Assembly: GCA_028718865.1 (NCBI GenBank) | Contig: JAQUKX010000005.1 | Coordinates: 368-64,367, forward strand | Reading direction: 5' to 3' | DNA: 64,000 nucleotides | Source of the DNA: Patescibacteria group bacterium | GTDB taxonomy: Bacteria; Patescibacteriota; Patescibacteriia; UBA1558; GWA2-36-10 | Shown: positions 23,708 to 50,066 of the stretch, in pieces | Layout of the letters: every line of letters starts with the position of its first letter | How positions within the stretch are numbered: the first letter of the stretch is position 1 | Notes under the pieces: generated by a model | The model's input: the letters and a program-made list of their open reading frames with translations, nothing else | Database searches by the model: none | What the model was told of the DNA's origin: nothing | Translations under genes and position numbers: made by a program

Positions 23708-23718
23708 TTTGCCAAATC

Positions 23719-24606: not shown

Positions 24607-24615
24607 TTTTTGATA

Positions 24616-26620: not shown

Positions 26621-26641
26621 AAAAATAAATAAATTATTATT

Positions 26642-27445
26642 TTAAAAAATAAATAAAGACCAATACCAATCAACCAGAATCTGGCCATAAAGCATAGTCA
26701 AAAAAGTAGCTAGCGCCAAAAAAGTGCCAAAAGGCAATTTGTCTTTGAGGCCTTTTTTGCGGCCAGCCAAAAGAAAAATGCTAAATACTGACCCTAGAAT
26801 ATAGGCAATAAATAAGGCTGTCAAAATATGCGGCCAGCCCAAAATCGCGCCCATCAGCGCTCCCAGCCGCACATCGCCGCCGCCTATCCAGCGGCCCTGA
26901 GAAATGACAAACTGCAAAAAGAAAAATCCGCCACCTACCAGCATAGCTGTAAACAAAGACCAGACTAACATGCCCAAAACCAAATTGGCGGTCAAAGCCA
27001 AAATTATTGCCGGCCAAACTACGCTGTCCAAAATCAAATAATACTTGAGGTCATAGACAAAAATAATAACCAAAAAGGCCGCCAACGCCCACCAGTTGAA
27101 CAAGTGCAAAATAACCAGAGGCGTCAAAAACTCCGGACTAAAATCCCCAAACAAGCGGACAAAAATCAAAACAAAAGCCAAGGCAGTAGCTAGCTCTACC
27201 AGCGGATACTGGACAGAAAATCGCTCACGGCAATAGCGGCAACGTCCTCTGAGGTACAAAAAGCTAAAAAAAGGCACTAGGTCCTGCGGATAAAGCTTGT
27301 GGCCGCAAAACAGGCACTTGGAAGAGCCGCGTATAAAGGACTCCTGTCTGTGCAGACGAAAAATAACCACATTGAGAAAACTGCCGACAAATAGCCCGAA
27401 AATAAAAACAAAAGCTACTATCATAGTAGCTTTATTATAACACAA
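26642..27445 (-). CDS. pilD: prepilin peptidase (A24 family)
   Basis: N-terminal zinc knuckle (CLFCGHKL...CRYCRERF) and eight TM helices with conserved Asp residues. Confidence 0.9.
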   Translation of the reverse strand: MCYNKATMIVAFVFIFGLFVGSFLNVVIFRLHRQESFIRGSSKCLFCGHKLYPQDLVPFFSFLYLRGRCRYCRERFSVQYPLVELATALAFVLIFVRLFGDFSPEFLTPLVILHLFNWWALAAFLVIIFVYDLKYYLILDSVVWPAIILALTANLVLGMLVWSLFTAMLVGGGFFFLQFVISQGRWIGGGDVRLGALMGAILGWPHILTALFIAYILGSVFSIFLLAGRKKGLKDKLPFGTFLALATFLTMLYGQILVDWYWSLFIF

Positions 27446-27466
27446 TAGAGCCGTGTTTGGTAGCGT

Positions 27467-27901
27467 TTAATTGGCGCGACAAACCATATTCATAGCGGCT
27501 GTTATCCGACACTGGCCGCCTTTATTTTTGTCTATATTCCACAAAGGCCACTTGCGCTTGAGTTCAAACTCTATCAGATAATTGTCTGCCCGGCTGATAA
27601 TAGTAGCCGAACCGACCCAAGCAAAATCTCGGACAAAATAATACTTTTGCTCACCAGCGACATTCACGCCCTTATCGCTAATAGAGCCAATGGACACCGC
27701 CGAACTTCTGGTCAAATCCGGATAAACATTGAACTTATCATAATATCTCTCCAAACCAAAGGCCAGTTGTTTGGCTTGAGCTACTAGTAGCAGATCATCA
27801 GCTCGGCGCTTTTCTTCAGTAGTAATAATAAGTAAAAAAACCAGCAAAAAAACAAAAGCCATGATTAGAAATATTTTTGTTTTAAGACTGTAGTTAAACA
27901 T
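27467..27901 (-). CDS. pilin-like protein lacking a canonical prepilin cleavage motif
   Basis: N-terminal TM helix followed by RRADDLLLVAQAKQLAFGLERYYDKFNVYP, which resembles the conserved mature-pilin helix of GspG/PilA. No G-F-T-L-x-E leader. Confidence 0.4.
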   Translation of the reverse strand: MFNYSLKTKIFLIMAFVFLLVFLLIITTEEKRRADDLLLVAQAKQLAFGLERYYDKFNVYPDLTRSSAVSIGSISDKGVNVAGEQKYYFVRDFAWVGSATIISRADNYLIEFELKRKWPLWNIDKNKGGQCRITAAMNMVCRAN

Positions 27902-27936
27902 AAATCAATTTGCTTTTATTTTGCCAATATTTACAC

Positions 27937-28097
27937 TCGGCTGTTTTGTTTCCCAGGAGCACGGCGTCGGCTCAAGAAGGCAGGCCATCTTTGTCCATAG
28001 CCGCGCCTATTGCTTGCCCCGCCTAAAATAAGTAAAAAATAAAAATCATTTTGCTGGGCGGGTCGGCGCAAATACTCCCTGTCAACAAAACAGCCTC
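27937..28097. ncRNA. candidate structured ncRNA (GC-rich island in AT-rich spacer downstream of the pilin gene)
   Basis: The 5' ggctgttttgtt (27939-50) and 3' aacaaaacagcc (about 28083-94) ends are perfectly complementary. Inside are GC-rich stems (cccgcc/ggcggg) plus an AT-rich loop. Strand and identity are undetermined. Confidence 0.25.
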
Positions 28098-28159
28098 GTT
28101 GATAATAAACTAAAAGATATAAACAATACTATTATTCATATTATACCACAAAAATCCCC

Positions 28160-28200
28160 AAACAAAAAACTCTCCTTTAGGAGAGTTTTTTGTTTTTAAA
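28160..28200 (-). terminator. intrinsic terminator of the major pilin gene
   Basis: aactctcct-tta-ggagagtt hairpin with flanking T/A runs. Confidence 0.55.
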
Positions 28201-28219
28201 TAAATTTTTGAAAATTTTA

Positions 28220-28636
28220 TTATGTTTCTATACAGCCGCTCGCTGTACATGTAATAGTGATAGTGCCATTAGTAGCTGCATAATTAAATGTGCCAGCGGA
28301 AGCAGAGCTATTACAAGTAGCACTATAACTCCAACCTGTTTGCTGAGCAACATTAGGCCAATTAATACTCGATCCTGTGCATATAGTACCTCCGGCTGTT
28401 GGGGTTTGGGCGCCTGCGCATGTAGCAGGAGTGGCCGCTCCATCATGTAAGTTTGCTCCCGCATCATGACAAAGAATTACACCTGGAATAATAGCTGCCA
28501 AAGATCCTTTGACCGCTGCTGTTCTTGCCTTGTCTCTAGCGCTATTTAAGTTTACCACCGCCACAGTGGACAAAATTCCGATGATGGCAATAACCACCAA
28601 AAGCTCAACTAAAGTAAAACCTTTTTTATTTCTCAT
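28220..28636 (-). CDS. pilA: type IV major pilin (start at [13 protein letters not shown] behind RBS GAGGAGGTGA)
   Basis: Class III signal [20 protein letters not shown]. Gly/Thr/Ala/Cys-rich C-terminal domain with six Cys. Confidence 0.85.
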
Positions 28637-28801
28637 TTTGTCACCTCCTCTCATACTAACTTTTGTTTTAGTTAAAACCCGAGATCTCCGAGGTTCTAGC
28701 CAAAAAACAAAAGCTAAAGGTGTTAATTTTTAAATATTTATAAAAATACGACTTTCTAATTATAGCATTTTTTCAAAAAACCAACAAGAAAAATAAAAAA
28801 A

Positions 28802-30010
28802 TTAGGAAATGCCCTGAGCAATTTTAAACATCGGCAACATTATGGCTGCTACCATACCACCCACGCCCACTCCCATGATGATAAGAATCATCGGCTCTAT
28901 CAAAGACGTCAGGCCAGCCACCAAATTATCTATTTCTCGGCTATAAAAAGAGCTTAATTTTTCTAGCACTGCATCCAGCTTGCCGGTACGCTCGCCTATC
29001 ACCATCATCTGGGAAAGCATCTTGGGCATCAGCGGTGATTTGACAAACAAACTGGCAATGGAATTGCCGCCTTCCACCTCATCCACTGTGTCCAAAATCA
29101 ACTTTTCATAAGCGTGATTATCTACTACTTCAGCGCTGATGGTCAGAGCCGAAGCAATAGGCACGCCGCCTCTGATGAGAGTGGACAAGCTTCTGGTAAA
29201 ACGTACTATATATATTTTTTTGAACAAAGAGCCAAAAATCGGCATTTCTATTTTAAAAGCATCCCAAGTAATTTTACCGGCTTTAGAGCTTACTAAAAAG
29301 CGGAAAATCACGATAAAAGCCGCTAGTCCAAAAAGAATAAAATACCAATAATCAGCCATAAAGCCGGAAATATTTATCAACAGACGAGTCAAAAAAGGCA
29401 GCTCGGCGCCGGTTTCTTCCAGCATCTGAGTCATCTGAGGCACCACAAAAACCATCATCAAAAATCCCACTGCTATCATGCCAAAGATAATAAAAGCCGG
29501 ATAAATCATGGCGCTTTTTACCCGCGAAACCAGATCATAATCTTTTTCCATCTGGTCAGCCAAATACTGCAAAATCTCGTCCAATTTACCCGAGGTTTCG
29601 CCGGATTTCAACATGGCTACATAAAAATTGCTAAACACTTTTTTATGCTTAGCCATGGAATCGGACAAGCGCATACCGCCTTCCACGTCATCGGCCATTT
29701 CTACTATCTTGGCGACAAAAATAGGATTAGTAGTTTGCTGAGATAATATTCTCAGCGACTGCACTATCGGCACTGTAGCAGAAATCATCACCGACAGCTG
29801 GCGGGAAAAAATCACCAGATCTTTAGCCGTCACGCTGCCAATATTTATATTGAATCCCTGCCGGCTTTTTTTTCTGGTTTCAGTCAAAGACACTATGCGC
29901 AAACCCCGCTCAGCCAAAAGCTCCGCCGCCTCATTTTCGCCGACTGCTTCTACTACTCCGGAGCTTATCTTGCCCTCACTGGTTCTGGCTCTGTATTTGT
30001 ATATAGCCAT
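28802..30010 (-). CDS. pilC: type IV pilus platform protein (GspF family)
   Basis: 402 aa. MAIYKYRARTSEGK start and two GspF repeats. Confidence 0.9.
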   Translation of the reverse strand: MAIYKYRARTSEGKISSGVVEAVGENEAAELLAERGLRIVSLTETRKKSRQGFNINIGSVTAKDLVIFSRQLSVMISATVPIVQSLRILSQQTTNPIFVAKIVEMADDVEGGMRLSDSMAKHKKVFSNFYVAMLKSGETSGKLDEILQYLADQMEKDYDLVSRVKSAMIYPAFIIFGMIAVGFLMMVFVVPQMTQMLEETGAELPFLTRLLINISGFMADYWYFILFGLAAFIVIFRFLVSSKAGKITWDAFKIEMPIFGSLFKKIYIVRFTRSLSTLIRGGVPIASALTISAEVVDNHAYEKLILDTVDEVEGGNSIASLFVKSPLMPKMLSQMMVIGERTGKLDAVLEKLSSFYSREIDNLVAGLTSLIEPMILIIMGVGVGGMVAAIMLPMFKIAQGIS

Positions 30011-30022
30011 AGCGCAAATAAA

Positions 30023-31075
30023 TTATCTAAGAGAAGAAAAATCTGTTGATTCTTTTTTGGCTTCTTCCATGTTGACTTGGCCGCTTTTGACCAGCTCCAG
30101 CAGCGATTTATCCAAAACCTGCATGCCCTCGTCTCGGGAAGTCTGCATAATGCTCCTGAGCTGCTGAAAATTGCCGTCTCTGATACTGGCTTTTACCGCA
30201 TTGGTAGAAGTGAGCACTTCGCTGGCCACGATCTGTCCCCCGCCTATTTTTGGCAGCAACCTCTGTGATAAGACTCCCAACAAAACTTCCGGCAATACTT
30301 CCCGACCCCAAGTGCGTTTTTCTAGGCTCAAAAGACTCAAAAACCTCTCAATAGCTGAAATAGCTGAATTGGCGACTATCACCAAAATCAGCAACTTACC
30401 GCTTTCTACCAATTCCAGAGCTAAATCCGCCAAACCCGACTCATAAAACTGATCCAAAAAAGCCACATCTATGTCTTCATTGAACATGTCTTTGAGCCCC
30501 TGGCTGAAGCTCTCTACATCACGACCCACTTCTCTCTGTTCAATAATAGACTGATTATTGACAAACAAATATTCTATCGGCCTTTCCAAAGTCTGGATAT
30601 GGCGGCCTTTGTTTTGATTCAAAGTTTCTATCAAAGAAGCAGCTGTGGTGCTGCGCCCTGAGCCAAAAGGCCCGGAAATAATAATCAATCCTTTGTCTTT
30701 ATTGAGTAACTGCAAAATAGCCGTAGGAATTTTCAGTTCTTTTGGCGAAAGAATAAAAGCTGGAATAAGACGCAAAGAAATAGCTAAATAGCCTTTTTGA
30801 TAAAAAAACTTGACTCTGAATCTAGCCCGATTAGCCCAGACATAAGAAATAGATAATTCTTTTTTCTGACTAAGCTCAGCCAACTGCTCTCTGCTCAAAA
30901 AAGATTCGGCAATGGACTGGATAGTATCGGGATTGAGTATATCCTGATCCGTCAAAGTAATGATTTTGCCTTCAGCCCTGATAACCGGATTGTTGCCAGC
31001 TAAAAGATACAAGTCGCTGGCCTTGCTTTCCAAAAAAGTATTTAAAATATTGTTGATAAGTAGGGTCTCTGACAT
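30023..31075 (-). CDS. pilT: twitching-motility retraction ATPase
   Basis: 350 aa. Walker A GPFGSGRSTT and a PilT-type N-terminus. Confidence 0.88.
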   Translation of the reverse strand: MSETLLINNILNTFLESKASDLYLLAGNNPVIRAEGKIITLTDQDILNPDTIQSIAESFLSREQLAELSQKKELSISYVWANRARFRVKFFYQKGYLAISLRLIPAFILSPKELKIPTAILQLLNKDKGLIIISGPFGSGRSTTAASLIETLNQNKGRHIQTLERPIEYLFVNNQSIIEQREVGRDVESFSQGLKDMFNEDIDVAFLDQFYESGLADLALELVESGKLLILVIVANSAISAIERFLSLLSLEKRTWGREVLPEVLLGVLSQRLLPKIGGGQIVASEVLTSTNAVKASIRDGNFQQLRSIMQTSRDEGMQVLDKSLLELVKSGQVNMEEAKKESTDFSSLR

Positions 31076-31081
31076 TTTAGG

Positions 31082-31450
31082 CTATAAGATATCTTTTATT
31101 TTTTTGATTACCTCTGAAGGAACAAAATGAGCTTTGATAAGATAATCACTAGCTCCCAATTCCAAGCAACGGTCTATATGCTCTTTTTGCGAATAGTTGG
31201 TCAAAACTATCACTTTGACTTCTTTGGTTTCCTCATCTTGACGTAACTGCTTGAGCACCTCAAAACCGTCTATCTCCGGCAAATTGAGATCCAAAAGGAT
31301 CAAATCAGGTTTTTCTTTTTTGGCTACTTTGATGGCTTCTCGCCCATTGGTAGCCTCTACTACGCCAAAGCCCTCCAGTTCCAGCTTGGTAGTATACATT
31401 TGTAGTAAAAACTCATCGTCTTCCACAATAAGAATTTTTTTGTCTTCCAT
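31082..31450 (-). CDS. stand-alone CheY-like receiver (REC) domain protein (PilG/PilH-like)
   Basis: ILIVEDDEFL...D (phospho-acceptor in LILLDLNLP)...K. 122 aa with no output domain. Confidence 0.85.
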   Translation of the reverse strand: MEDKKILIVEDDEFLLQMYTTKLELEGFGVVEATNGREAIKVAKKEKPDLILLDLNLPEIDGFEVLKQLRQDEETKEVKVIVLTNYSQKEHIDRCLELGASDYLIKAHFVPSEVIKKIKDIL

Positions 31451-31451
31451 A

Positions 31452-33194
31452 TTATTCTTCTATTTTACTTACTCTTAAAACTTCCTCCAGGGTGGTCAGG
31501 CCCAGCAAAACTTTGATAATACCATCTTGCTCCATATCAATAAAATGCTGTTTCTCTAGCTCTTCATTGACAGCTGAGCGGGAAAATCCCTTGGCAACCA
31601 CCTCCTGCAAATTGGTACTGATGTTTATTGCTTCCACTATAGCTAATCGGCCTTTGTAGCCAGTATGCCCGCAATGTGAGCAGCCTTTGCCATGATAAAA
31701 TTTTAGATTTTTAGGATCAATATCGCCAAAAATCGCTTCCTGAGGTATAGTTGCCAATTTCTGCCTAACATCTTCCACTAGGTTGTCTGGTAATTTTACT
31801 TCTTCTTTACATTTTTCGCAATTTTTCCTGACTAGACGCTGAGCAACAATAGCATTGAGAGTAGAGGCAAGTAAAAATGGCTCTACATGCATATCAAATA
31901 ATCGCGGTATGGCGCCAATAGCGCTATTGGTATGCAAGGTAGTCAAAACCGAGTGGCCAGTCAAGCCAGCATGGATAGCTAGTTCAGCTGTTTCATTGTC
32001 ACGAATTTCTCCTACCATGATAATATCGGGATCCTGACGCAAAAGAGCTCGTAGTCCAGTAGCAAAAGTAAAATTTACTTCTGGCCTTATCTGTGACTGG
32101 TTGACTCCTGGGATATAATACTCTACCGGATCTTCCAAGGTAGCGATATTGACATCTTCTTTATTGAGATAGCTCAAAGCGGCAAACAAAGTGGTTGATT
32201 TTCCACTGCCAGTCGGACCAGTGAGTAAAAACAAGCCATTGGGTTTGTGGATATTTTTTTCCACGATTTTCAGCTGCAGCCCCATAAAGCCTAGATCGGA
32301 AAAAGTCGGTGCCCGCTCTGGCGTATCCAGTATACGCATCACTACTTTTTCCTGACCCAGCAAAGGTATGGTAGAAATACGAAAGTCGATTTCTTTGTTG
32401 TGCACCTTGATGCGAATACGGCCGTCCTGCGGTATCCTGGTTTCATCTATTTTCAAGTTGGCCATTACTTTTATTCTGGAAACCAAAGCTGCATGGACAT
32501 AAATAGGCAAAACTATGGTAGTATGAAGGACGCCGTCTATTCTGTATCTGACCTTGCTCTGTTTGCCTACCGGCTCAATATGAATATCAGAAGCCCGCCC
32601 CTCTATGGCATGGCGCAATACTACCGAAACTATCTTGGAAACCGGAGCGCTTTTTATCACTTCGCCCAAATCAGCCGAAGCCTCCAAAAAATCATCCTTG
32701 GGAGCAAAAATCGCTTCCGCTGTATCTAAGGCTTCACCCACTTCTTCACCCAAAGTTTCATATTGCTTGGCGGCCGAACGATAGCTATCTTCAGAAATTA
32801 TATAATACTTGAAAGTAAAATTCTTCTTGCGAGCCAAAAAATTCAGCGCTTCAATTGCCTTGAAATTGGTCGGATCTACCAAGCCCACTTCAATATTTTT
32901 GCCTTGGCGGTCAAAAACCACCATTTGATAGTTTTCCGACAAATTAAGCGGCAAAATATTCAAAATCGCCGAGTCAATCTTGCGGCCGACCAAGTTGACA
33001 TAATCCATTTCATAAAAAGCCGCCTTGACGCTGATCCAATCTTCCTCAGAAATCAAAGACAAACGGCGAACCGATTTTTCCAAATCCTCAAAAGAATCAA
33101 AATCACTGGCGGCCAATTCTTGATATTGGTCGTCGTTTATAAATTCTCGTTTTCGTAAAAGATATAAAAGCTTTTTGCTTTCTGGTCTAGTCAT
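31452..33194 (-). CDS. pilB: type IV pilus assembly ATPase (GspE family)
   Basis: Walker A GPTGSGKSTT, a GSPII_E N-domain and a C-terminal zinc motif CSHCGHTGYKGR. Confidence 0.9.
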   Translation of the reverse strand: MTRPESKKLLYLLRKREFINDDQYQELAASDFDSFEDLEKSVRRLSLISEEDWISVKAAFYEMDYVNLVGRKIDSAILNILPLNLSENYQMVVFDRQGKNIEVGLVDPTNFKAIEALNFLARKKNFTFKYYIISEDSYRSAAKQYETLGEEVGEALDTAEAIFAPKDDFLEASADLGEVIKSAPVSKIVSVVLRHAIEGRASDIHIEPVGKQSKVRYRIDGVLHTTIVLPIYVHAALVSRIKVMANLKIDETRIPQDGRIRIKVHNKEIDFRISTIPLLGQEKVVMRILDTPERAPTFSDLGFMGLQLKIVEKNIHKPNGLFLLTGPTGSGKSTTLFAALSYLNKEDVNIATLEDPVEYYIPGVNQSQIRPEVNFTFATGLRALLRQDPDIIMVGEIRDNETAELAIHAGLTGHSVLTTLHTNSAIGAIPRLFDMHVEPFLLASTLNAIVAQRLVRKNCEKCKEEVKLPDNLVEDVRQKLATIPQEAIFGDIDPKNLKFYHGKGCSHCGHTGYKGRLAIVEAINISTNLQEVVAKGFSRSAVNEELEKQHFIDMEQDGIIKVLLGLTTLEEVLRVSKIEE

Positions 33195-33201
33195 AAAAGG
33201 C

Positions 33202-33597
33202 TTAAAATCCGAAAAATCCGCCTTGCCTGATTAACTCTTCATCGGAAGTAGTAGCGGTAGAAACAAAAGGGTTAGGATTGCCGATATCTTCACTGATGTT
33301 TATCACTACTTCCAACTCTTCCAGCTGGCGATATTGTTCGTCGTTATAAAAATTTTCCCAAATTGACTCTGGTCCCAAGCTTTCCAATTTGAGAAAATCA
33401 CTGATATTATCCAAAGCAATAGCCTTTAATCTCATTACTCTGGCTAGCTCTACATTTTGTTGCACTTCTAAATCAAGAGAGGTTTCCTCTGGTTTGAAGC
33501 TGTCATAAAGCCAAAAAGCAGACACTATCAAAACCAAGCCAAAAATCGCCAAAAGTACCAGTAAAGTTTTTTTATCGTTTTCTTTTGTCTCAGGCAT
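33202..33597 (-). CDS. membrane-anchored hypothetical protein (possible PilP analogue)
   Basis: 131 aa with a single N-terminal TM helix. Lies between pilO-like and pilB. Confidence 0.4.
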   Translation of the reverse strand: MPETKENDKKTLLVLLAIFGLVLIVSAFWLYDSFKPEETSLDLEVQQNVELARVMRLKAIALDNISDFLKLESLGPESIWENFYNDEQYRQLEELEVVINISEDIGNPNPFVSTATTSDEELIRQGGFFGF

Positions 33598-33602
33598 TTT
33601 AA

Positions 33603-34274
33603 TTAACGATAATAAGTAATCAAATCCAAATTAAAGCTGGCTATTGAGCTGCCGCTGGTGAGCTCACCGAAAGAAATAGTCTGAATATCCATCAAACGCA
33701 AATTACTCTGTAAATCTTCTACATAATCCTTAAAATCCTGATAAATATCCGGTGACTCCTGCTCGGGCAATCCGGTTATATCCAAAGGCCGAGCTAAAGA
33801 TAAATGAACTACCAAAGATTTAAGCGGAGCATCTTGCCCAACCTCTGCTCTATCCGGCTCAGTACTAGCTGCTGACCCACGATCGCTAATATTGATAGAT
33901 GTAAGAGTAAACAAATGCCGAGCTGCCAAGCGATCAGCTATTACGAACAACTCAGCAATTTGCGGCTCCTCGGGCAATATTTTTTTGATTTTTTCCAAAT
34001 CCTGGGCTCGAGACGACCTTATGCTCAGATATTCTTCTTCCAATTCCCGAATTCTAGTCAGCAATTTTTCATTTTGGACCCTTCTTTCTTCTGTTTCTAT
34101 ATCCTGTTCCCTGACTTGAGAGATATCATCTAGCTTGGGATTGAGCAAAAAGAAATAAGACAAAGCAAAGACCCCGGCCAGCAAAACAAACAGAATCAAA
34201 ACAAAATAACGATTGGCCAGCAAAAGCAGTTCCGAGGGCTGTTCAAATTTTATTTCTTTTTTTCTGATGGGCAT
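33603..34274 (-). CDS. PilO-like protein
   Basis: N-terminal TM helix followed by a coiled coil. Position follows pilN. Confidence 0.5.
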   Translation of the reverse strand: MPIRKKEIKFEQPSELLLLANRYFVLILFVLLAGVFALSYFFLLNPKLDDISQVREQDIETEERRVQNEKLLTRIRELEEEYLSIRSSRAQDLEKIKKILPEEPQIAELFVIADRLAARHLFTLTSINISDRGSAASTEPDRAEVGQDAPLKSLVVHLSLARPLDITGLPEQESPDIYQDFKDYVEDLQSNLRLMDIQTISFGELTSGSSIASFNLDLITYYR

Positions 34275-34293
34275 AAAAATACTTGACTAAGGA

Positions 34294-35700
34294 TTATTGA
34301 GACCGCGGTCCATAGCCGTAATAAAATAAATTCTCATTGAGCACCAAAGTAACACTGAAAGCCACGCCGTTGGCTTGCAGTGAAGCTGCCGAAATGCTGG
34401 CCATAGAAACAAACTCTCTAGCCTCAGGCTGCTGCAGGAGCTTCAACAGCCGTGCCGGCGAATCATAATCACGACCAATAGCATTGAGAGTGAGCGCTCC
34501 CTTATTGCCAGCATTTATCCCCTGATAATAAACTTCTGTAGGAGTATATTTTTCCAGCATAGCAAAAAAATTGGTCCAATAGATATGCTTATTCAAAAGA
34601 TTGTGCACTGTTTTTATTTCCTGACCCAAAGCGCTGATTTCCTTATTGATAAGCTCATATTCCAAAATCTTTTTTTCCAAATCCGATATCTGACTACTGC
34701 GCCTTTCCTGCTGTTTGCGGATATTGTGCTCCTGGAAGGACAAATAAGCATAAAATGACCCAGCGACCAAGATTGATCCCAAAAAAGCCGCCAAAGCCAA
34801 AATTCCTATCTGGCGCCAGCTCTTGGTTCTGACTGACTTAGGTATCAAATCCAGGCCGCCACCGCCGTCAACAAATCTATCCGACTGCTTGTCTGTAGGA
34901 CGATGAAACCTATCAGTTGAAGCCTTGCTCTTATTGCCATTATCTTGAAGCGGCGGACTGACTATCTCTGGTATGGAAAAATCTCTTTTTTTTGTCTCCA
35001 GCTGATCAAAAGATGTCTTCAACGCCGGGATAAATGCTTCTGGCGCCGGCGCTCTTGCCAGCGGCTCTTTTATAGGCTCTTCTTCTAGGACTGGTTTCTG
35101 TGTTTCGACTTTTGGCGCCGGCGCCGAGTTTTTGGCGTCATCATGCAGGCTCTTAAGCAATATGGAGTCAGCACCGTTTTTCAAAGGCTGAGCTTGATAT
35201 TGGTTTTTTTCCTGCGGCTCTTTCCCTTTTTTGTCTTGCTTGGGACGGCCGGCAAATTTGCTCTTTAGCTTGACCCAAAAAGAAATTTTCTTTTGCGAGG
35301 GAACCGAGCTGTCTGGCAGAGAAAAATCAAAACCGGATTTTTTGACATAGTGGATCTTTCTTTCTTCTGGCCTGGCTTCTTTTTTGGGAATATGAACTGA
35401 AGAAAATTCTCGTTTTTGTTTCTTGGGTGATTGCAGGCGGTCAAAATCAATATCGCCTGTATCTTTTTCTGTTTTTTTGACTTGACCCGGCTTAGGCGCT
35501 TGAGGAATTTGAAAACGGGTCTTTTTAGAAAAAACATTTTTGAATTTCTGGCCAAACAAACCGGCTGACTTCAAAGGCCGAGACTGCTCTACTGAATCAG
35601 GCACTACTAAATCAATATGAAAATCGCGCGGCTGTTGACTCTTGTCTTCTTTAGCTCGCAAGTCTTCCGGTAATAAATTGATGTTTCTGTCGCTAGACAT
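34294..35700 (-). CDS. PilN-like protein with a long disordered cytoplasmic insertion
   Basis: N-terminal INLLPEDLR PilM-binding motif. A second DLIPKSVR copy sits immediately before the single TM helix. C-terminal PilN-like periplasmic domain. Confidence 0.55.
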   Translation of the reverse strand: MSSDRNINLLPEDLRAKEDKSQQPRDFHIDLVVPDSVEQSRPLKSAGLFGQKFKNVFSKKTRFQIPQAPKPGQVKKTEKDTGDIDFDRLQSPKKQKREFSSVHIPKKEARPEERKIHYVKKSGFDFSLPDSSVPSQKKISFWVKLKSKFAGRPKQDKKGKEPQEKNQYQAQPLKNGADSILLKSLHDDAKNSAPAPKVETQKPVLEEEPIKEPLARAPAPEAFIPALKTSFDQLETKKRDFSIPEIVSPPLQDNGNKSKASTDRFHRPTDKQSDRFVDGGGGLDLIPKSVRTKSWRQIGILALAAFLGSILVAGSFYAYLSFQEHNIRKQQERRSSQISDLEKKILEYELINKEISALGQEIKTVHNLLNKHIYWTNFFAMLEKYTPTEVYYQGINAGNKGALTLNAIGRDYDSPARLLKLLQQPEAREFVSMASISAASLQANGVAFSVTLVLNENLFYYGYGPRSQ

Positions 35701-35706
35701 AAAAAC

Positions 35707-36834
35707 TTAAAAAATATCTCTCATTGCCAGCCCCAGGCAAACTGACATGCGCGGCCCCATCTCGTCCAGTATCGGCTTGAGATCCAAAGGATAAATTATC
35801 CTGTCCCAAGGATCGCCGATAATTACCGAGATATTGAGCAGTTCTGACAAATACTGGGGAAAATTGGGCAAAAAAGAGCTGCCGCCGGTAAGAATTATTT
35901 TTTCTATACTGCCGGTATCCTGCTTGTGATAGCGGTCAAAGACATAGCGAATTTCATTGATAATGGCATCAAGCGATTTTTTTATAACATCAGGTATTTT
36001 CTGATCACCACCAGCTAAAGACAAGCCAAAATCACGCTTAAATTGCTCAGCCCTGTCTTTACTGACATTAAGGCTGTTCATAATAGTAGTAGTGATAGAC
36101 TCGCCTCCCATATCCAGCCCCTGGTTAATAATAGGCACACCTTCTTCAATAATACAGATATCCGTTGTAGTCGAGCCCACATCCACTATCATCACCGTTG
36201 ACCTGTCGTTGCCCAAAAGCGAACGAGCTAAGGCAAAAGACTCTGTTTCTAGACTAAGCAAATTGAGCTTGGCTCGCTTGAAGATATCAATATAGCGAGC
36301 TACTAGATTTTTGGGAGCGGCTGTGAGCAAAATACGGTAATTCTGCTCATCCTGTTTGACATTAGCCTTGCCGGCGCTATCTGACTGAATGTCTCCATTT
36401 TTTTTATCAGCTTCTTTTTTATCTTTTTTCAGTCCTTGACTTTTACGTTTAGCACCAATTATCTTCCAATCCAAAATAGTTTCCTCCAAAGGCACGGGGA
36501 TGAATTTTTTGGCCTCCCATTTGATAGCCGAAGCCAAATCCTTTTTGGGCATGGGAGGCAAGTTGATAATAAAATTAAAAACCGAAAAAGTCGGCAAAGC
36601 CGCTACTGCCGATCTGGTCTGAGTATTGGCTTTTTTGGTTATTTCATTAATATAACGGGCTATTTTTTCATTATTTTGTTCTATATCGCCACCCAAGACA
36701 TTGACTGCCGCATCGGCATAGCCGTAGGTCTTAAGACGAGCCTGATTTTTGAAGTTTTCAAGCTCAACAATCTTGATACTGGAGGTACCAATATCCACTC
36801 CCAAATAACTAGTAGAACTGGAAAATAATCCCAT
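35707..36834 (-). CDS. pilM: actin-like ATPase
   Basis: YLGVDIGTSSIKIVEL ... DVGSTTTDICII ... ILTGGSS are the actin/PilM motifs. Confidence 0.85.
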   Translation of the reverse strand: MGLFSSSTSYLGVDIGTSSIKIVELENFKNQARLKTYGYADAAVNVLGGDIEQNNEKIARYINEITKKANTQTRSAVAALPTFSVFNFIINLPPMPKKDLASAIKWEAKKFIPVPLEETILDWKIIGAKRKSQGLKKDKKEADKKNGDIQSDSAGKANVKQDEQNYRILLTAAPKNLVARYIDIFKRAKLNLLSLETESFALARSLLGNDRSTVMIVDVGSTTTDICIIEEGVPIINQGLDMGGESITTTIMNSLNVSKDRAEQFKRDFGLSLAGGDQKIPDVIKKSLDAIINEIRYVFDRYHKQDTGSIEKIILTGGSSFLPNFPQYLSELLNISVIIGDPWDRIIYPLDLKPILDEMGPRMSVCLGLAMRDIF

Positions 36835-36904
36835 ATTTATTATTTTGCTAAAAACTTAAATAACACTTGATATTATAACACATTTGACAATCTTAGCCAA
36901 AGAA

Positions 36905-46126: not shown

Positions 46127-46218
46127 GGAGAGGTGGCTGAGTGGTTGAAAGCGGCACCCTGCTAAGGTGTTACTCCGATTTTTTGGGGTCGAGGGTTCGA
46201 ATCCCTCCCTCTCCGCCA
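46127..46218 (+). tRNA. tRNA-Ser (GCT) with long variable arm, CCA encoded
   Basis: GGAGAGG acceptor pairs with CCTCTCC-G-CCA. Anticodon loop CTGCTAA. T-arm GGGTTCGAATCCC. Confidence 0.9.
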
Positions 46219-46388: not shown

Positions 46389-46462
46389 ATGAAATCCAAT
46401 ATCAACAATGAAGTGTGTCACCCGAGGTCTTGACGAAGGGTGACAAATTAGAAGAAAATGCG

Positions 46463-46747
46463 ATGTATTACGTCTATATTTTACATTTAAACAATAGCTC
46501 TTTTTATACTGGGTACACTATAAATATTATCAAAAGATTGAAAGAGCATAAAAACGGAAGAGTTAAATCAACAAAAAATTTTAGACCAATCAAATTAGTT
46601 TGGTATTGTATTTTTCCATCTCGTTTACAAGCAAGAAGGTTTGAGAATTATCTAAAAACTGGCTCTGGTCAAGCATTTAGAAATAAAAGGTTAATAAAAA
46701 TTAATTTCATGGAGAGTTGGCAGAGCGGTCGAATGCGGCGGTCTTGA
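46463..46747 (+). CDS. GIY-YIG nuclease family protein (start at MYYVYILH); its 3' end overlaps tRNA-Ser(TGA)
   Basis: [18 protein letters not shown]...RLKEHKNG...WYCIF...[14 protein letters not shown] motifs. The ORF reads through into the tRNA gene at 46711. Confidence 0.65.
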
Positions 46748-46798
46748 AAACCGTTAGACCGAAAGGTCTCGGGGGTTCGAATCCCTCACTCTCCGCCA
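46711..46798 (+). tRNA. tRNA-Ser (TGA) with long variable arm, CCA encoded
   Basis: GGAGAGT acceptor pairs with ACTCTCC-G-CCA. Anticodon loop CTTGAAA. Variable arm TAGACCGAAAGGTCTC. Confidence 0.9.
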
Positions 46799-46920: not shown

Positions 46921-47970
46921 TTAGGGGGGGGTAGTATAATAGTCTTGTATGAAAGAATTTCTTAGATCATTACTAAAGTCATAAGCATTAGCGTGACTCA
47001 AAACACCCAAGTAAGATTGTAATGATTGTTCGTAAGTATATTTAGTTATTTTATCATCTTCATATTCATTTCTACGCAATTCTAATTTCCTTATCATCCT
47101 TTTCTTAGTATTAGCTCTAATGAGTTTGTGGTAAGGGAAAATAATATGACCCAGAAAATCAATACCTTGGCTATATTTACGAATAGATACTTTCTTAGGA
47201 TGTAATTGTAATAATAATTCATTAGATAAAAATTTAGATATTGGCTTCAAAATATTTTTTAAATACTCTTTGTCATCAGAAACAATTATAAAATCATCAG
47301 TATATCTGACATAATGCTTAACTTTCAATTCTTGTTTTATATACTGATCTAGCTTGTTCATGTAAATATTAGCGAAAATTTGTGAAGTGAGATTACCAAT
47401 CGGTAAGCCTTTCTTTTGAAATATATTAGAAGAATAACTATTAATTATATCTTCCATTAACCACATGGTATCTTTATCTTTTATACGTTTACAAAGAACA
47501 ACTAAAAGAACATAATGATCCACTGAATCAAAGAATTTCTTTATATCACATTTTAAAGCATAACAATTCCTTGTATTATTTTGACTTACTTTTCTTAATA
47601 TTTTAGCTAGAGTGTCCACTCCTTTGTGGCTACCTTTACCTTTACGGCAAGAAAATGAATTAGGAATAAAAGTCGGTTCAAATATTGGCAGCAATATTTT
47701 ATAAACAGCGTGGTGTAAAATTCTATCTCTAACCTTTGCCTTATGAATATGTCTAAGCTTAGGATCAGTAATATAGAAACCAGTATATGAACCATGACTA
47801 TAACTTTTATTGTCTAATTCCCTATGTAATTTAAAAACGTTTTCCTCTAAATTAAACTCAAACTTTTGGACATCAATTTTATGCCTTTTGTCTTTTTTAA
47901 ACTCATCCCAAGCTAAAAATAAATTTTTCAGTGAAATAATATCTTTAAATATATCATTATAAACTTTCAT
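46921..47970 (-). CDS. diversity-generating retroelement (DGR) reverse transcriptase
   Basis: 349-aa RT with no maturase or endonuclease domain. Conserved N-terminus (LFLAWDEFKKDKRHK...FEFNLEENVFKLHRELDNKSY). Motif 4 LPIGNLTSQIFANIYMNKLD carries the DGR-specific [ILV]GxxxSQ. Catalytic YTDDFII. A cognate TR/VR pair is adjacent. Confidence 0.9.
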   Translation of the reverse strand: MKVYNDIFKDIISLKNLFLAWDEFKKDKRHKIDVQKFEFNLEENVFKLHRELDNKSYSHGSYTGFYITDPKLRHIHKAKVRDRILHHAVYKILLPIFEPTFIPNSFSCRKGKGSHKGVDTLAKILRKVSQNNTRNCYALKCDIKKFFDSVDHYVLLVVLCKRIKDKDTMWLMEDIINSYSSNIFQKKGLPIGNLTSQIFANIYMNKLDQYIKQELKVKHYVRYTDDFIIVSDDKEYLKNILKPISKFLSNELLLQLHPKKVSIRKYSQGIDFLGHIIFPYHKLIRANTKKRMIRKLELRRNEYEDDKITKYTYEQSLQSYLGVLSHANAYDFSNDLRNSFIQDYYTTPP

Positions 47971-48321
47971 ATGGACAATTTTGACATTCCAATTTTTAAG
48001 AAAAGCTACGATTTATACAAAACACTACATGAGTATAGAAACTCAATTCCCAAAAAAGATAGATTTACTATTTTTGAGCGGTGTGAGAATATCTTACTTG
48101 ATATCATAGCCAACATACTTTTGGCTTCCAGTCAAAAACCTAAAGATAAATTACCAACTCTAAACAATATAAGTTTAAAATTAAACCTATTAAGAGTATT
48201 TATTCGTCTGCTCAAGGACATCAAAGCCATAGACAATAAGAAATATGTTAGTCTGGAAAGCATGGTTGATGAAATTGGTAAAATGCTTGGTGGCTGGATA
48301 AGATCTACTAAGATCAGATAA
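47971..48321 (+). CDS. avd: Avd (accessory variability determinant; four-helix-bundle family), encoded divergently from the RT
   Basis: 116-aa basic protein. C-terminal EIGKMLGGWIRS resembles the BPP-1 Avd ...EVGRILGSWIAR as I recall it. YDLYKTLHEY...IPKKDRFTIFERCENILLDIIANILLA fits the four-helix-bundle family pattern. Its ATG directly abuts the RT ATG in the palindrome CATATG at 47968-47973. Confidence 0.8.
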   Translation: MDNFDIPIFKKSYDLYKTLHEYRNSIPKKDRFTIFERCENILLDIIANILLASSQKPKDKLPTLNNISLKLNLLRVFIRLLKDIKAIDNKKYVSLESMVDEIGKMLGGWIRSTKIR

Positions 48322-48357
48322 ACGAAAAGGTGCTAAAAAGCACCCTTTCGTAACAAT
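48322..48357. other. hairpin immediately 3' of the TR (in TR sense); also usable as a terminator for avd
   Basis: acgaaaaggtgc-taaaaa-gcaccctttcgt, a 12-bp stem with one mismatch. Confidence 0.5.
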
Positions 48358-48366
48358 GAGAAGATA

Positions 48367-48495
48367 CTTCGGGACGAAGGCCGACACCGAGCCATAGTTG
48401 TCGTTGGCATTGTTGACCCAGTTGGTGTTGAACTTGACCTTGCCGTCGTTGAAGTTGAAGATTGGCGCGTTGTTGAACTGACCATCGGCATCCGG
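48367..48495 (-). repeat. DGR template repeat (TR); the adenine-bearing sense strand is the minus strand, the same orientation as the RT
   Basis: 129 bp aligning to 48905-49033. In the TR frame it encodes PDADGQFNNAPIFNFNDGKVKFNTNWVNNANDNYGSVSAFVP. It is AAC/AAT (Asn)-rich, the classic TR signature. Confidence 0.85.
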
Positions 48496-48833
48496 ATTAT
48501 TACTTCTGTCCATCTTTTATCACCAAGTATTGGGCTTTACTTCTTATTGGCTATAAGACTATATTCTCTTTACTTTGAATTTTATTTGGCAGCAACTAAT
48601 AAAGTATCTGCACCAGACAAAAGCAAGCAGTATCTCCTCAAAATAACACTCTCTTAAAAATCTTGATTTTTAAGACTCTGGTTATATATCTTTAAAGAGA
48701 AAGTCAGGCGATGGCAATTCTTAAAATGCCATTCACTAGCCCAACTCAAAAATATTATAACAAATTATTTAAACAAAATGAAAAGAGGGTTACCCACGGT
48801 ACGTGGTACCTATGGATAACCCCCCTGTGGCGA

Positions 48834-48852
48834 GTCACCGCTACGCGGTGAC
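48834..48852. other. GC-rich hairpin about 50 bp downstream of the VR
   Basis: gtcaccgc-tac-gcggtgac, a perfect 8-bp stem. Confidence 0.5.
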
Positions 48853-48898
48853 AAGGTCTCAAAGGCTCAAAAGAACTCAAGCCTTCAAGAGTTCAAGG

Positions 48899-49780
48899 CT
48901 AGGACTGCGGGACGAAGGCCGACACCGAGCCACAGCGGTCGCCGGCACCGTTGACCCAGCGGGTGCTGACCTCGACCTCGCCGCCGCTGAAGTGGAAGAA
49001 CGGCGCGCTGCGGAACTGACCATCGGCATCCGGAGCGAACTCGTCGCCCGCACAGTCGATCCAGAGATCGTCGTAGTGCTTGAGACGCTCGGGGTGGGTG
49101 AGCAGCATGATGGCGATCTCGTAGGCACCGAGACCGAACTCGTCGGAGGTGAAGACCTCGCGGGCTCGGCGGACGGAACTTCCACGGTGACGGAGACCGA
49201 ACTGGACCGGAACGAGCAGGATGTCGTGCTCCGATTGCTGGTCGCCGATGAGATCCAGCGCGTGGTTGGTGCGAGCCGATCGCTGCAGGTACTCGGGGCC
49301 GAGCTGGCCCTCGCGGTAGTTGTGGAACTTGCCGCCACGGGTCTGCTTGATCAGATCGAGGACGATCTGGACAGCCTCGCCGTAGGTCAGCGCGATCTTC
49401 TCCCACCTCGGGATGGCGAACCAGCCCTCGGCACCATCCGGCAGAACCTGACCAGCAACGTCCTCGTCCACCCGCATCGGGATGCCCGAGAAGAACTGGC
49501 GCAGGATCTTGCACTGCTCGGTGATCGGCTTGACCACGTAGCCCGACAGGTAGCCGTACTTGGAGGAGACCTCCTCGTCGGCGTACTGGTTGGAAACCGA
49601 GAGTTCCCTGATGGCCGCGATGATGCTGGCCTGGAACTCGCCGCCTCTCGAGATGAGCTTTTGGATGCGATCCTTGTCCAGGTTCGCTTCCTGAAGTGCC
49701 CGCTGAGCTGCGTCTTCGACGAAACGCTTGTATTGCTTGAGTTGACCGGACGTGATCGACGTGTTGGTCGTCATCGTCAT
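48899..49780 (-). CDS. DGR target protein (VR at the C-terminus; no signal peptide) with anomalously high GC
   Basis: RBS AGGAGG upstream of ATGACGATGACG. 293 aa ending ...PDADGQFRSAPFFHFSGGEVEVSTRWVNGAGDRCGSVSAFVPQS, collinear with the TR translation. Codon third positions are overwhelmingly G/C, unlike all neighbouring genes. Confidence 0.8.
   Translation of the reverse strand: MTMTTNTSITSGQLKQYKRFVEDAAQRALQEANLDKDRIQKLISRGGEFQASIIAAIRELSVSNQYADEEVSSKYGYLSGYVVKPITEQCKILRQFFSGIPMRVDEDVAGQVLPDGAEGWFAIPRWEKIALTYGEAVQIVLDLIKQTRGGKFHNYREGQLGPEYLQRSARTNHALDLIGDQQSEHDILLVPVQFGLRHRGSSVRRAREVFTSDEFGLGAYEIAIMLLTHPERLKHYDDLWIDCAGDEFAPDADGQFRSAPFFHFSGGEVEVSTRWVNGAGDRCGSVSAFVPQS
48905..49033 (-). repeat. 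DGR variable repeat (VR)
   Basis: By hand alignment to the TR there are 21 mismatches over 129 bp, 20 of them where the TR sense strand has A (T on the + strand). The 3' end carries an identical GC-rich IMH-like segment ggctcggtgtcggccttcgtccc, then cag in the VR versus aag in the TR. Confidence 0.85.
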
Positions 49781-50035
49781 ACCTCCTATTAAATCGCTGG
49801 AATGCTGTCCAGTGCAGTCTCATACTCCCTATGAGATGAGCTTTTTATGTGCTATTTAAAATTAACGCACAAAAAGCACACCTCATAGAGATTGCCTTGA
49901 ATTTATTGATATAAAGGACTATTTAAGATTATATTAGTATATCATATTTTAATTAAAATGTCAATATTCAGGATTTTGAATTTTAGCTTGAAGTGCGAAA
50001 TTAAGGCCAGTTTTATAAGGGTCTTAGAGCTAGCA

Positions 50036-50066
50036 CGAGGATGTTCGAATCCCTCCCTCTCCGCCA
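50036..50066 (+). pseudogene. 3' fragment of tRNA-Ser (duplicate of the last about 24 nt of tRNA-Ser(GCT) including CCA); candidate att-site remnant
   Basis: cgaggatgttcgaatccctccctctccgcca. The last 24 nt are identical to 46195-46218, and no 5' half is present. Confidence 0.6.

Follow-up and report, generated by a model that had tools for sequence, protein, structure and literature searches.

A chromosomal diversity-generating retroelement of the Patescibacteria type with a covarying RNA leader upstream of its template repeat

The sole structural model of priming in diversity-generating retroelements (DGRs) derives from one phage element, that of Bordetella phage BPP-1 (mtd-avd-TR-brt). Its cryo-EM description (bRT-Avd-RNA; 8ub7-8ube) comprises a template:primer duplex, a cPRT-stop duplex, an adenosine stem-loop, and stem-loops which bind the reverse transcriptase (RT) and the accessory variability determinant (Avd); elsewhere, checks of conservation have covered only 40 nt on the 5′ side and 100 nt on the 3′ side of the template repeat (TR). 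Among 278 DGRs with avd, 207 have an Avd-binding stem-loop just 3′ of the TR (Handa et al.). In the Candidate Phyla Radiation (CPR, Patescibacteria) 90% of DGRs possess architecture B3, “TR-(avd)-RT” (Wu et al. 2018, NAR 46:11); the DGRs of this host group, also described as DGR clade 2 (Roux et al. 2021, Nat Commun 12:3076), have a single adjacent target without transmembrane or recognisable domains and with the variable repeat (VR) at its C-terminus. CPR targets without membrane or signal features have already been reported (Roux et al. 2021, PMC8144416). Other cellular DGR targets, Treponema denticola TvpA and Legionella LdtA, have C-type lectin or FGE-type folds and are lipoproteins or surface-exposed. 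Retron ncRNAs (msr-msd) are characterized by a1/a2 stems and a branching G (cf. Paul & Eren 2022).

The window analysed here is a stretch of 64,000 nt, the relevant features of which are collected in Table 1. Its cassette is, with high confidence, best explained as a chromosomal DGR of the Patescibacteria (CPR) type with architecture B3. A complete DGR had been claimed in the preliminary description, and this was supported on every test run: RT, Avd, TR, and a target with a VR were all found, and every feature listed there is present and no more than 1 nt off. Judged from its sequence, the DGR is complete, with every part in place; it is probably active, as its relatives suggest, and probably hypermutates the tip of a cytoplasmic lectin-fold target protein. 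No further targets or VRs were found within the window.

Table 1. Coordinates of the features discussed, numbered from the first letter of the window.
Feature	Position	Strand	Remarks
tRNA-Ser genes	46127-46218, 46711-46798		
DGR reverse transcriptase	46921..47970	-	ORF, 349 aa; GLPIGNLTSQ and YTDDF
avd accessory gene	47971..48321	+	ORF, 116 aa; head-to-head with RT
Stem-loop H7	48323..48352	-	Between TR and avd stop; 13-bp stem, 4-nt loop
TR 3′ flank GAAGUAUCUUCUC	48358..48370	-	Pairs with leader box (helix H3)
Template repeat (TR)	48366..48496	-	A-free IMH*-like block 48370-48394
Structured leader of TR RNA	48497..48746	-	About 250 nt, upstream of TR; covariation
Leader H6	48525-48575	-	
Leader H5	48589-48611	-	
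Leader H4	48615-48626 paired with 48500-48511	-	
Leader box	48627-48639	-	Pairs with TR 3′ flank (H3)
Leader H1/H2	48644-48684	-	
Leader P1	48707-48741	-	
Extended -10 promoter element of TR RNA	48754..48762	-	TGnTATAAT, conserved
Terminator-like hairpin after target	48787..48825	-	5′ arm with DnaA-box-like TTATCCAtA
CTTGAR direct repeats, about 8 nt	48853..48898	-	Array immediately 3′ of VR and stop codon
Target gene	48899..49780	-	293 aa, cytoplasmic; N-terminal helical domain, C-terminal C-type-lectin-like domain with VR
Variable repeat (VR)	48904..49034	-	Last 43 target codons; A-free IMH-like block 48908-48932
Target promoter-like site	49936..49964	-	TTGACA-17-TATACT, with TG; 11/12 positions match

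The RT carries the DGR motif claimed for it ([I/L]GxxxSQ, together with the catalytic YxDD), and alignment scores likewise place it with the DGR-clade enzymes. It matches Pfam RVT_1 at 99.8 bits and PHROG 1423 at 394 bits, and its closest solved structure is the Bordetella phage DGR RT (bRT; 8ub7_A, E=5.6e-47), with IGNLTSQ aligned to IGSLTSQ and YTDD to YMDD. Retron-type and group II intron RTs come next among the PDB matches, each at around 1e-19. Profile searches bore out the Avd-like gene, the product of which passes the cutoffs of NCBIfam NF033474 DivGenRetAVD (88 bits against 80) and PF22296 bAvd (68.8 bits against 40), and also matches PHROG 3206 “Avd protein of DGR.” The RT start abuts, or lies no more than 23 nt from, the avd start; the back-to-back arrangement proposed earlier is seen here as start codons abutting in CATATG.

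TR and VR form an ungapped 131-nt repeat with an offset of 538 nt. Alignment by hand had given 21 differences over 129 nt, 20 of them at adenines; the full repeat contains 22 mismatches, 21 of which fall at TR adenines on the minus strand (hypergeometric P=4e-14) as 15 A>G, 5 A>C, and 1 A>T changes, the sole exception being a T>G at 48432. The 35 TR adenines are distributed 15, 19, and 1 over codon positions 1, 2, and 3, and include those of ten AAY codons; some 10^19 peptides are possible. A plain recent duplication with random substitutions, situated beside an RT of an unrelated type (retron, group II intron or defence), would account for the existence of a repeat and for nothing more. It is refuted by the adenine bias of the mismatches, a pattern repeated in 36 other loci; with the Avd above its curated cutoff and the RT much nearer to bRT than to retron-type or group II intron enzymes, this explanation is hardly conceivable.

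The 3′ ends of TR and VR share an identical 25-nt A-free block followed by a TR-A/VR-C difference. The IMH-like shared block of the preliminary description thus stands, but its terminal aag (TR) and cag (VR) are not a product of mutagenesis; this difference is fixed in 36 of 37 related loci and therefore marks IMH* versus IMH, the VR ending in a putative GC-rich IMH and the TR in a non-identical IMH*. The distance from the avd stop to the TR, given as 45 bp, was measured as 44 nt.

Comparison with close relatives bears on activity. In six near-identical loci (the L020 group) the TRs differ at no more than five sites, while the many differing sites of the VRs are all located at TR-adenine positions. 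Between the window and another relative, L006, there are 6 differences in the TR and 31 in the VR, 22 of the latter at TR adenines, and the rest of the target gene is 92.7% identical. Since the TRs of close relatives are constant and their VRs vary at TR adenines, this clade appears from its sequences to be actively diversifying. The cassette might nevertheless be an inactive relic, with its parts intact and its VR no longer diversified in this organism, and the one non-adenine mismatch could be taken as a sign of this. Such a reading is improbable given the intact RT, avd, and target ORFs, the catalytic YTDD, the 35 adenines retained in the TR, at codon positions 1 and 2, and the adenine-restricted VR turnover of the relatives.

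The architecture had been regarded as unusual, a view which does not survive comparison: TR-(avd)-RT, avd being encoded on the other strand, is the published B3 order, characteristic of nine in ten CPR DGRs, and a TR-hairpin-(avd)-RT module is present in all 37 related loci with a locatable TR. In 28 of these, the window included, the order is target>TR>(avd)>RT; in the remaining nine the same module precedes the target in inverted orientation. The exact target protein is listed in NCBI as “MAG: ... PHO91_02660 [Patescibacteria group bacterium],” which is congruent with a CPR host, and the informative organism labels among 80 related loci are mostly Patescibacteria-type lineages, many labels being from automated bins and carrying generic or other names. 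[quoted passage not shown] As a DGR it adds nothing new, its layout and export-less target being textbook for Patescibacteria. Three of its features, namely the structured leader, the codon-usage bias of the target, and the DnaA-box-like hairpin, find no mention in the searchable CPR DGR literature.

The TR is preceded by a conserved extended -10 element. Across 29 loci, drawn from both arrangements, its aligned TAnnnT hexamer is conserved and keeps a constant spacing to the leader that follows it; a simple sigma-70 scan missed the element because there is no good -35. The leader itself is 68-84% identical between loci by blastn, where the proteins are only about 55-65% identical. Support from covariation is strong: RNAalifold predicts 52 leader pairs, 43 of them with compensatory changes. 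When 63 RNA pairs are scored, pairing holds in 91.2% of cells, and the covariation score of 0.576 compares with 0.26 for shuffled controls (0/500 reach 0.576) and 0.13-0.18 for slid ones. The leader contains no ORF of at least 50 aa and has no Rfam match at E<=1. An nhmmer profile of it matched 43 of the 80 target-family genome loci, comprising each of the 36 related loci whose TR is clean and a further seven, and none of 36 IMG/VR contigs that matched the leader-box 16-mer only. This RNA family was not found in the searchable literature, and earlier CPR DGR work may describe the leader.

Two helices connect the leader with the flanks of the TR. H3, between the leader box and the TR 3′ flank, is predicted unaided by RNAalifold and also by a single-sequence MFE fold (z = -3.2); 83% of its cells are paired versus 40-61% with the partner slid, and in 25 of 29 sequences a single internal position lacks a partner. 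Covariation in H3 is modest, as its two strands hardly vary, and the proposed helix is supported chiefly by conserved complementarity. Pairing in H4 reaches 98.6%, and compensatory changes occur in 9 of its 12 pairs. Downstream, a hairpin (H7) begins about 12 nt past the TR in 37/37 loci, its sequence varying and its structure kept, with compensatory changes in 10 of 11 pairs. This matches the position of the BPP-1-type stem-loop directly 3′ of the TR, and by analogy H7 is a candidate Avd-binding stem-loop, a weak terminator, or both. As its sole role, that of a plain bidirectional intrinsic terminator was rejected: five or more T follow the stem on the TR strand in only 4/37 loci, and on the avd strand in none.

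These data lead us to propose, tentatively and with slightly less than even confidence, that CPR-type (B3) DGRs employ a circularly permuted DGR RNA. Transcription of the TR from its own promoter would yield a structured RNA some 430 nt long, in which one leader strand pairs with the TR 3′ flank (H3) and then, unbroken, with the 12 nt 5′ of the TR (H4); this strand would be followed by a stem-loop, an A-rich single strand, and a long stem-loop, and the TR by H7. RT-Avd would bind this RNA, cDNA synthesis would be cis-primed from a leader nucleotide near 48627-48629, and the TR would be copied with adenine-specific errors until copying stops at H4. Replacement of the VR by this cDNA would follow, with the A-free GC-rich IMH block as its guide. 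The approximately 250-nt leader would thus contain the primer strand, stop-duplex strand, adenosine stem-loop, and RT-binding stem-loop, with the Avd-type stem-loop alone remaining 3′ of the TR.

Compared with BPP-1, the RT and Avd are homologous, and the adenine-specific transfer from TR to VR, the GC-rich IMH block, and the CLec-fold VR are shared, as is the predicted topology of the RNA helices. The connectivity differs. The primer and stop-duplex strands and the RT-binding stem-loop, 3′ of the TR in BPP-1, are not found there, only H7 occupying that position; strands which pair with the TR 3′ and 5′ flanks are located upstream, in the leader, so that the spacer-like elements lie 5′ of the TR, a circular permutation. 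In addition, avd is inverted between TR and RT, the TR has its own predicted promoter, and the target is a cytoplasmic cellular protein rather than a phage tail fibre. A cDNA joined by a branch to a nucleotide 5′ of the template it copies would be retron-like, and the model recalls retrons both in placing the priming nucleotide in structured RNA 5′ of the template and in closing the template loop by a 5′/3′-flank helix (cf. the a1/a2 stems and branching G). Beyond the RT fold there is no homology to retron RTs, and the DGR product serves adenine-mutagenic homing into a gene and is not kept as msDNA.

According to the preliminary description, any transcript from TR to RT would have to cross antisense avd. 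The necessity falls away with a TR promoter and spacer-like elements upstream; read-through into the RT may still occur, as H7 lacks a U-tract in 33/37 loci. A rival reading, which we consider rather unlikely, makes this one long leader-TR-antisense avd-RT transcript the functional RNA, with H7 and antisense avd as the spacer and the leader as a 5′ UTR or regulatory region. Besides the missing canonical U-tract, it is consistent with the collinearity of TR and RT in 37/37 loci, with the RT start, for which neither a convincing promoter of its own nor a Shine-Dalgarno sequence could be recognized upstream, and with the prototype-like elements reported for CPR DGRs in the 40 nt before and the 100 nt after the TR (Handa et al.). 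Against it, the 12 nt 5′ of the TR pair with the leader and not downstream, and the TR 3′ flank has the invariant leader box as its partner. Furthermore, the gap between TR and avd stop is only about 45-75 nt, the remainder being bound by avd coding, and nucleotide conservation of the leader is far above the need of a plain UTR. The permuted RNA, if real, would reveal what in the RNP has to be kept (topology) and what can vary (connectivity), and the compact, self-contained 3-kb cassette, with its separate promoters, would be suited to reconstitution.

With regard to mobility, the 3.0-kb cassette (46958-49964) is 88% nucleotide-identical to L006 and the flanks are unrelated, identity beginning exactly at 49964, the left edge of the conserved cassette. 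A 24-nt copy of the tRNA-Ser 3′ end is found at 50043-50066, in direct orientation with both tRNA-Ser genes. Location in a prophage or other mobile element, where the DGR would diversify a receptor-binding protein for tropism switching, could explain the unrelated flanks, the position of the cassette between a tRNA-Ser gene and this copy, and two IMG/VR contigs with the same kind of cassette. It is nonetheless very improbable: no phage structural, integrase or PHROG-annotated genes occur nearby, the flanks are of a housekeeping nature (a Clp ATPase-like ORF, a RecG-like ORF, and, by Pfam, a glycosyltransferase), the target has neither a PHROG match nor tail-fibre or export features, and real cassettes are present in only 2 of 38 IMG/VR pattern matches. 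A viral origin was likewise rejected, the other 36 matches to the leader-box 16-mer being due to chance. The directly oriented tRNA-Ser copy might also point to a tRNA-borne integrative island, although there is no integrase and the relatives have no tRNAs nearby.

The target was correctly described as lacking a signal peptide or TM helix. Its N-terminus is hydrophilic, no hydrophobic stretch was detected (maximum 19-residue Kyte-Doolittle mean, 1.14), and neither a signal peptide nor a lipobox is present in the sequence. That an intracellular target is uncommon holds for DGRs in general but not for the CPR clade, in which it is reported as typical (Roux et al. 2021, PMC8144416). In comparison with TvpA and LdtA, the protein differs in having no signal peptide or lipobox and in its unannotated N-terminal helical domain. 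The VR is predicted to sit in a divergent C-type-lectin-like domain of a soluble protein without export signals, and was recorded as lying on a C-type-lectin (or Ig) fold. Foldseek against PDB returned no significant match, and PADLOC nothing for the target.

Within this one 3-kb cassette, GC3 is 0.84 for the target and 0.21 for the RT. High target GC3 is family-wide (78/80 loci, with proteins only 51-68% identical) and tracks host GC3, and TR and target form two separate GC-rich islands in AT-rich DNA; on these observations recent HGT or a chimeric assembly was rejected as the source. GC3 is flat along the target gene and falls within 100 nt on both sides, so that no VR-centred gradient of repair or gene conversion is seen. 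A purely adenine-specific depletion is unsupported, T3 being depleted too. Opposite extremes of codon usage in one mobile 3-kb unit constitute an unexplained pattern, which may reveal a constraint from adenine mutagenesis; the GC-rich, A/T-poor usage of the target, like the DnaA-box-like hairpin, may be part of the same biology as the permuted RNA, and may, for example, reflect avoidance of off-target adenine mutagenesis.

The region following the target gene is also distinctive. TTGA occurs 3.6 times per 110 nt after the target stop versus a background of 0.76 (78 loci), and the direct-repeat array sets the first hairpin after the VR off from the IMH, a difference from BPP-1. The sequence TTATCCACA, with at most one mismatch, is found within 170 nt past the target stop in 39/78 loci, compared with a background of 0.045 per 170 nt. 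The median position of these boxes is 75 nt, and 37 of 46 are in the same orientation; the DnaA-box-like hairpin may have a role in, for example, replication-coupled cDNA integration.

The 349-residue protein encoded by the reverse transcriptase (RT) ORF possesses GLPIGNLTSQ and YTDDF, as the preliminary description had reported, and profile searches match it to Pfam RVT_1. Among solved structures the Bordetella phage DGR reverse transcriptase (8ub7_A, E=5.6e-47) is by far the closest, and the DGR-typical IGxxxSQ and YxDD motifs of the two align; similarity of the protein to retron-type and group II intron RTs is far weaker (~1e-19). The divergent ORF, earlier taken to be Avd-like, scores above the curated cutoff of the NCBIfam DGR Avd model (88 bits vs 80) and is also matched by Pfam bAvd. 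Antisense to RT codons 3-5 there is a conserved TATAAA whose end, in the window, precedes the avd ATG by 7 nt; this suggests that the avd mRNA is leaderless or near-leaderless; no counterpart for RT was seen at the RT-avd junction.

A database entry identical to the target protein (locus tag PHO91_02660) is annotated as hypothetical and comes from a Patescibacteria MAG; homologues of the target number more than 2251, nearly all from Patescibacteria. The comparison set consisted of 80 genomic loci encoding target homologues, in 37 of which, the window included, a clean adenine-biased TR was found. All 37 share the RT-strand order TR, hairpin, inverted avd, RT; 28 loci have this module downstream of the target and nine have it inverted and upstream. 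The architecture had been regarded as unusual and an intracellular target as uncommon. Both are in fact typical of the clade, since Wu et al. (2018) had already defined architecture B3, "TR-(avd)-RT," which accounts for 90% of their CPR set, and in CPR-clade targets transmembrane and other recognisable domains are typically absent (Roux et al. 2021). The locus is a further instance of this established CPR B3 type, and the earlier claim of novelty finds no support; its moderate interest rests on an apparently permuted, conserved template-RNA leader and on a codon-usage anomaly.

TR and VR constitute an ungapped 131-nt repeat with 22 mismatches, 21 of which fall on TR adenines of the minus strand (P=4e-14), which bears out the adenine bias first noticed by hand alignment. 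The TR adenines are distributed 15/19/1 over codon positions 1/2/3, ten codons are AAY, and the set permits some 10^19 peptides. There is one VR and one target only within the 64 kb. The terminal triplet (AAG in TR, CAG in VR), preceded by a 25-nt A-free GC-rich block, is a fixed difference in 36 of the 37 loci, and we read it as a presumptive IMH*/IMH distinction between the TR and VR 3′ ends, not as an outcome of mutagenesis. In six near-identical loci, which come from different MAGs, the TRs differ at no more than five positions and the VRs at many, every one a TR adenine. L006, the closest relative, differs from the window at six TR and 31 VR positions (22 of the latter at TR adenines), the target outside VR being 92.7% identical. 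The DGR is genuine and, judging from these relatives, probably active.

Approximately 250 nt upstream of TR are conserved at the nucleotide level across loci of both arrangements, with 68-84% identity between loci whose proteins share only about 55-65%. In an alignment of 29 non-redundant loci a TGnTATAAT-like -10 element is conserved, downstream of which structured RNA extends to TR. RNAalifold predicts 52 pairs, 43 with compensatory double changes; the full-length alignment gives 63 pairs in seven helices (91.2% paired), with a covariation score of 0.576 vs 0.26 when shuffled (0/500 reach it) and 0.13-0.18 with slid partners. Folding of the single 427-nt sequence from the window (48320-48746) gives these helices too (z = -3.2). 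The leader region contains no ORF of at least 50 aa and no Rfam match at E≤1. Among the 80 target-family genome loci the leader profile matches 43, and these take in all related loci that possess a clean TR; the chance IMG/VR contigs give no match. No description of this leader was found in the literature searchable here, in which coverage of CPR DGR work is incomplete; the survey by Handa et al. would miss it because it took in no more than the 40 nt before TR and the 100 nt after it.

Helix H3 is supported mainly by conserved complementarity, with modest covariation. The leader strands of H4 and H3 are contiguous, and beyond them lie stem-loop H5, a conserved A-rich single strand and the long stem-loop H6. 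In the Bordetella phage RNA the template:primer duplex is formed by Sp53-56 (Sp being the spacer 3′ of TR) and TR118-121, and the cPRT stop by Sp59-70 and the segment just upstream of TR; a short stem-loop, A-minor adenosines, a single-stranded thumb ring and an RT-binding stem-loop come next, and an 11-bp Avd-binding stem-loop directly follows TR. The helix topology of the CPR RNA is alike, but its spacer-like part is joined 5′ of the template, from which we infer that it would be a circular permutation of the prototype, with its break point separating the Avd-type stem-loop from the primer strand.

The preliminary description had supposed a read-through transcript also serving as RT mRNA. 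The RNA elements around TR can be accounted for without such read-through, and we consider it rather unlikely. It stays a live rival because H7 is without a U-tract in 33 of the 37 loci, TR and RT are collinear in every one, and the RT start has no evident promoter or Shine-Dalgarno sequence upstream at the inspected junction, where it abuts the avd start in CATATG (in 35 related loci the two abut, lie at most 23 nt apart or slightly overlap).

Coordinates of the cassette and its surroundings in the window
Feature	Position	Strand	Remark
Type IV pilus- or competence-like ORF run	~23700-36900	-	prepilin-like N-termini, e.g. 28220-28654
tRNA-Ser genes	46127-46218, 46711-46798		beside cassette
GIY-YIG ORF	46415-46747	+	110 aa
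RT	46921-47970	-
Stretch shared with L006	46958-49964		L006 4785-7792
TATAAA, RT-avd junction	47960-47985
avd	47971-48321	+
H7 stem-loop	48323-48352	-	after TR
H3	48627-48639 x 48358-48370	-	nearly invariant leader box GAGGAGAUACUGC x TR 3′ flank; conserved complementarity
TR	48366-48496	-
H4	48615-48626 x 48500-48511	-	leader x 12 nt just 5′ of TR; very well supported
-10 element	48754-48762	-
Terminator-like hairpin	48787-48825	-	arm GGGGYTATCCACA
Shadow ORF	48803-49792	+	329 aa
GC hairpin	48834-48852
CTTGAR repeats	48853-48898	-
Shadow ORF	48877-49338	-	153 aa
Shadow ORF	48885-49823	-	312 aa
Target	48899-49780	-
VR	48904-49034
5′ UTR hairpin	49822-49895	-	imperfect, ~24 bp
Promoter-like site	49936-49964	-	TTGACA-17-TATACT with TG
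Copy of tRNA-Ser 3′ end	50043-50066		24 nt

The target has no sequence match in Pfam, NCBIfam, PHROG, PADLOC or PDB. Its AlphaFold model, built from 120 homologues, is confident (pLDDT 90.8), with the N-terminal ~110 residues predicted to be largely helical. The assignment of a C-type-lectin-like fold has moderate support, since Foldseek against PDB returned nothing significant. A hydropathy scan reveals no transmembrane helix or signal peptide, in agreement with the earlier reading.

The target is the sole GC-rich island of the window (GC 0.63, GC3 0.84, A3 0.05), its fourfold-degenerate sites being C.51, G.28, T.17 and A.04. By comparison, the RT of the same cassette has a GC3 of 0.21 and fourfold-degenerate sites of T.64, A.18, C.10 and G.08; GC3 is 0.32 for avd and 0.21-0.56 for the other window ORFs examined, leaving aside the plus-strand shadow ORF inside the target. 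Family-wide, target GC3 averages 0.72 vs 0.43 for neighbouring genes, exceeding theirs in 78 of 80 loci; it correlates with host GC3 (r=0.55) and sits about 0.3 above it. The occurrence of the bias across the family and its tracking of the host, together with the lack of a 5′-3′ gradient and sharp boundaries at the gene, speak for a force that is maintained and confined to the gene, and against recent transfer; none of the explanations tried accounts for the bias. Three shadow ORFs overlap the target owing to its GC-richness; as genes they are without support, and longest-ORF gene callers could mis-annotate the locus.

Directly 3′ of VR and the stop codon are four to seven imperfect CTTGAR direct repeats, ~8 nt apart, with TTGA enriched 4.8x; the array has the same position in most related loci, a position which in the prototype is occupied by the GC-rich inverted repeat. 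A small GC hairpin follows, and then a terminator-like hairpin whose conserved arm is DnaA-box-like (TTATCCACA, ≤1 mismatch). In 39/78 loci this arm is found some 75 nt past the target stop, at fixed distance and orientation; it is ~11x denser than background and is also present at target loci without a nearby RT. Upstream of the target are a strong promoter-like site and, in the presumed 150-nt 5′ UTR, a long hairpin that gave no more than weak miRNA-like noise in Rfam. Many genomes, about 40 of the 80 (among L004-L080), have a target homologue but neither RT nor avd within 5 kb; these loci share the GC bias and the 3′ hairpin. Tandem paralogous VR-bearing copies occur in L051, L068 and L069. 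Both may represent remote or orphan targets.

The window and L006, a second Parcubacteria MAG, share 88% nucleotide identity over exactly the stretch from target promoter to RT 3′ end, with unrelated flanks; by this comparison the 3-kb cassette is a discrete and transferable unit. Its neighbours in the window are tRNA-Ser(tga) on one side and, on the other, the tRNA-Ser 3′-end copy, which is exact for tRNA-Ser(gct) and has an att-site-like look. No integrase was found near the cassette, no phage-like genes adjacent to it, and no tRNAs near it in the relatives. Only two IMG/VR contigs carry such a cassette, L112 and L118 (UViGs 3300024999_000712 and 3300025012_001675); classed as viral, they contain the leader-TR-(avd)-RT module together with a target homologue (276 aa aligned at 47.8% identity). 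The stretch between tRNA-Arg and tRNA-Ser, immediately beyond the conserved cassette, contains an ORF with a GIY-YIG nuclease domain (Pfam, 58 bits). Elsewhere in the window, a run of ORFs with prepilin-like N-termini and ATPase- and platform-like neighbours resembles a type IV pilus or competence cluster.
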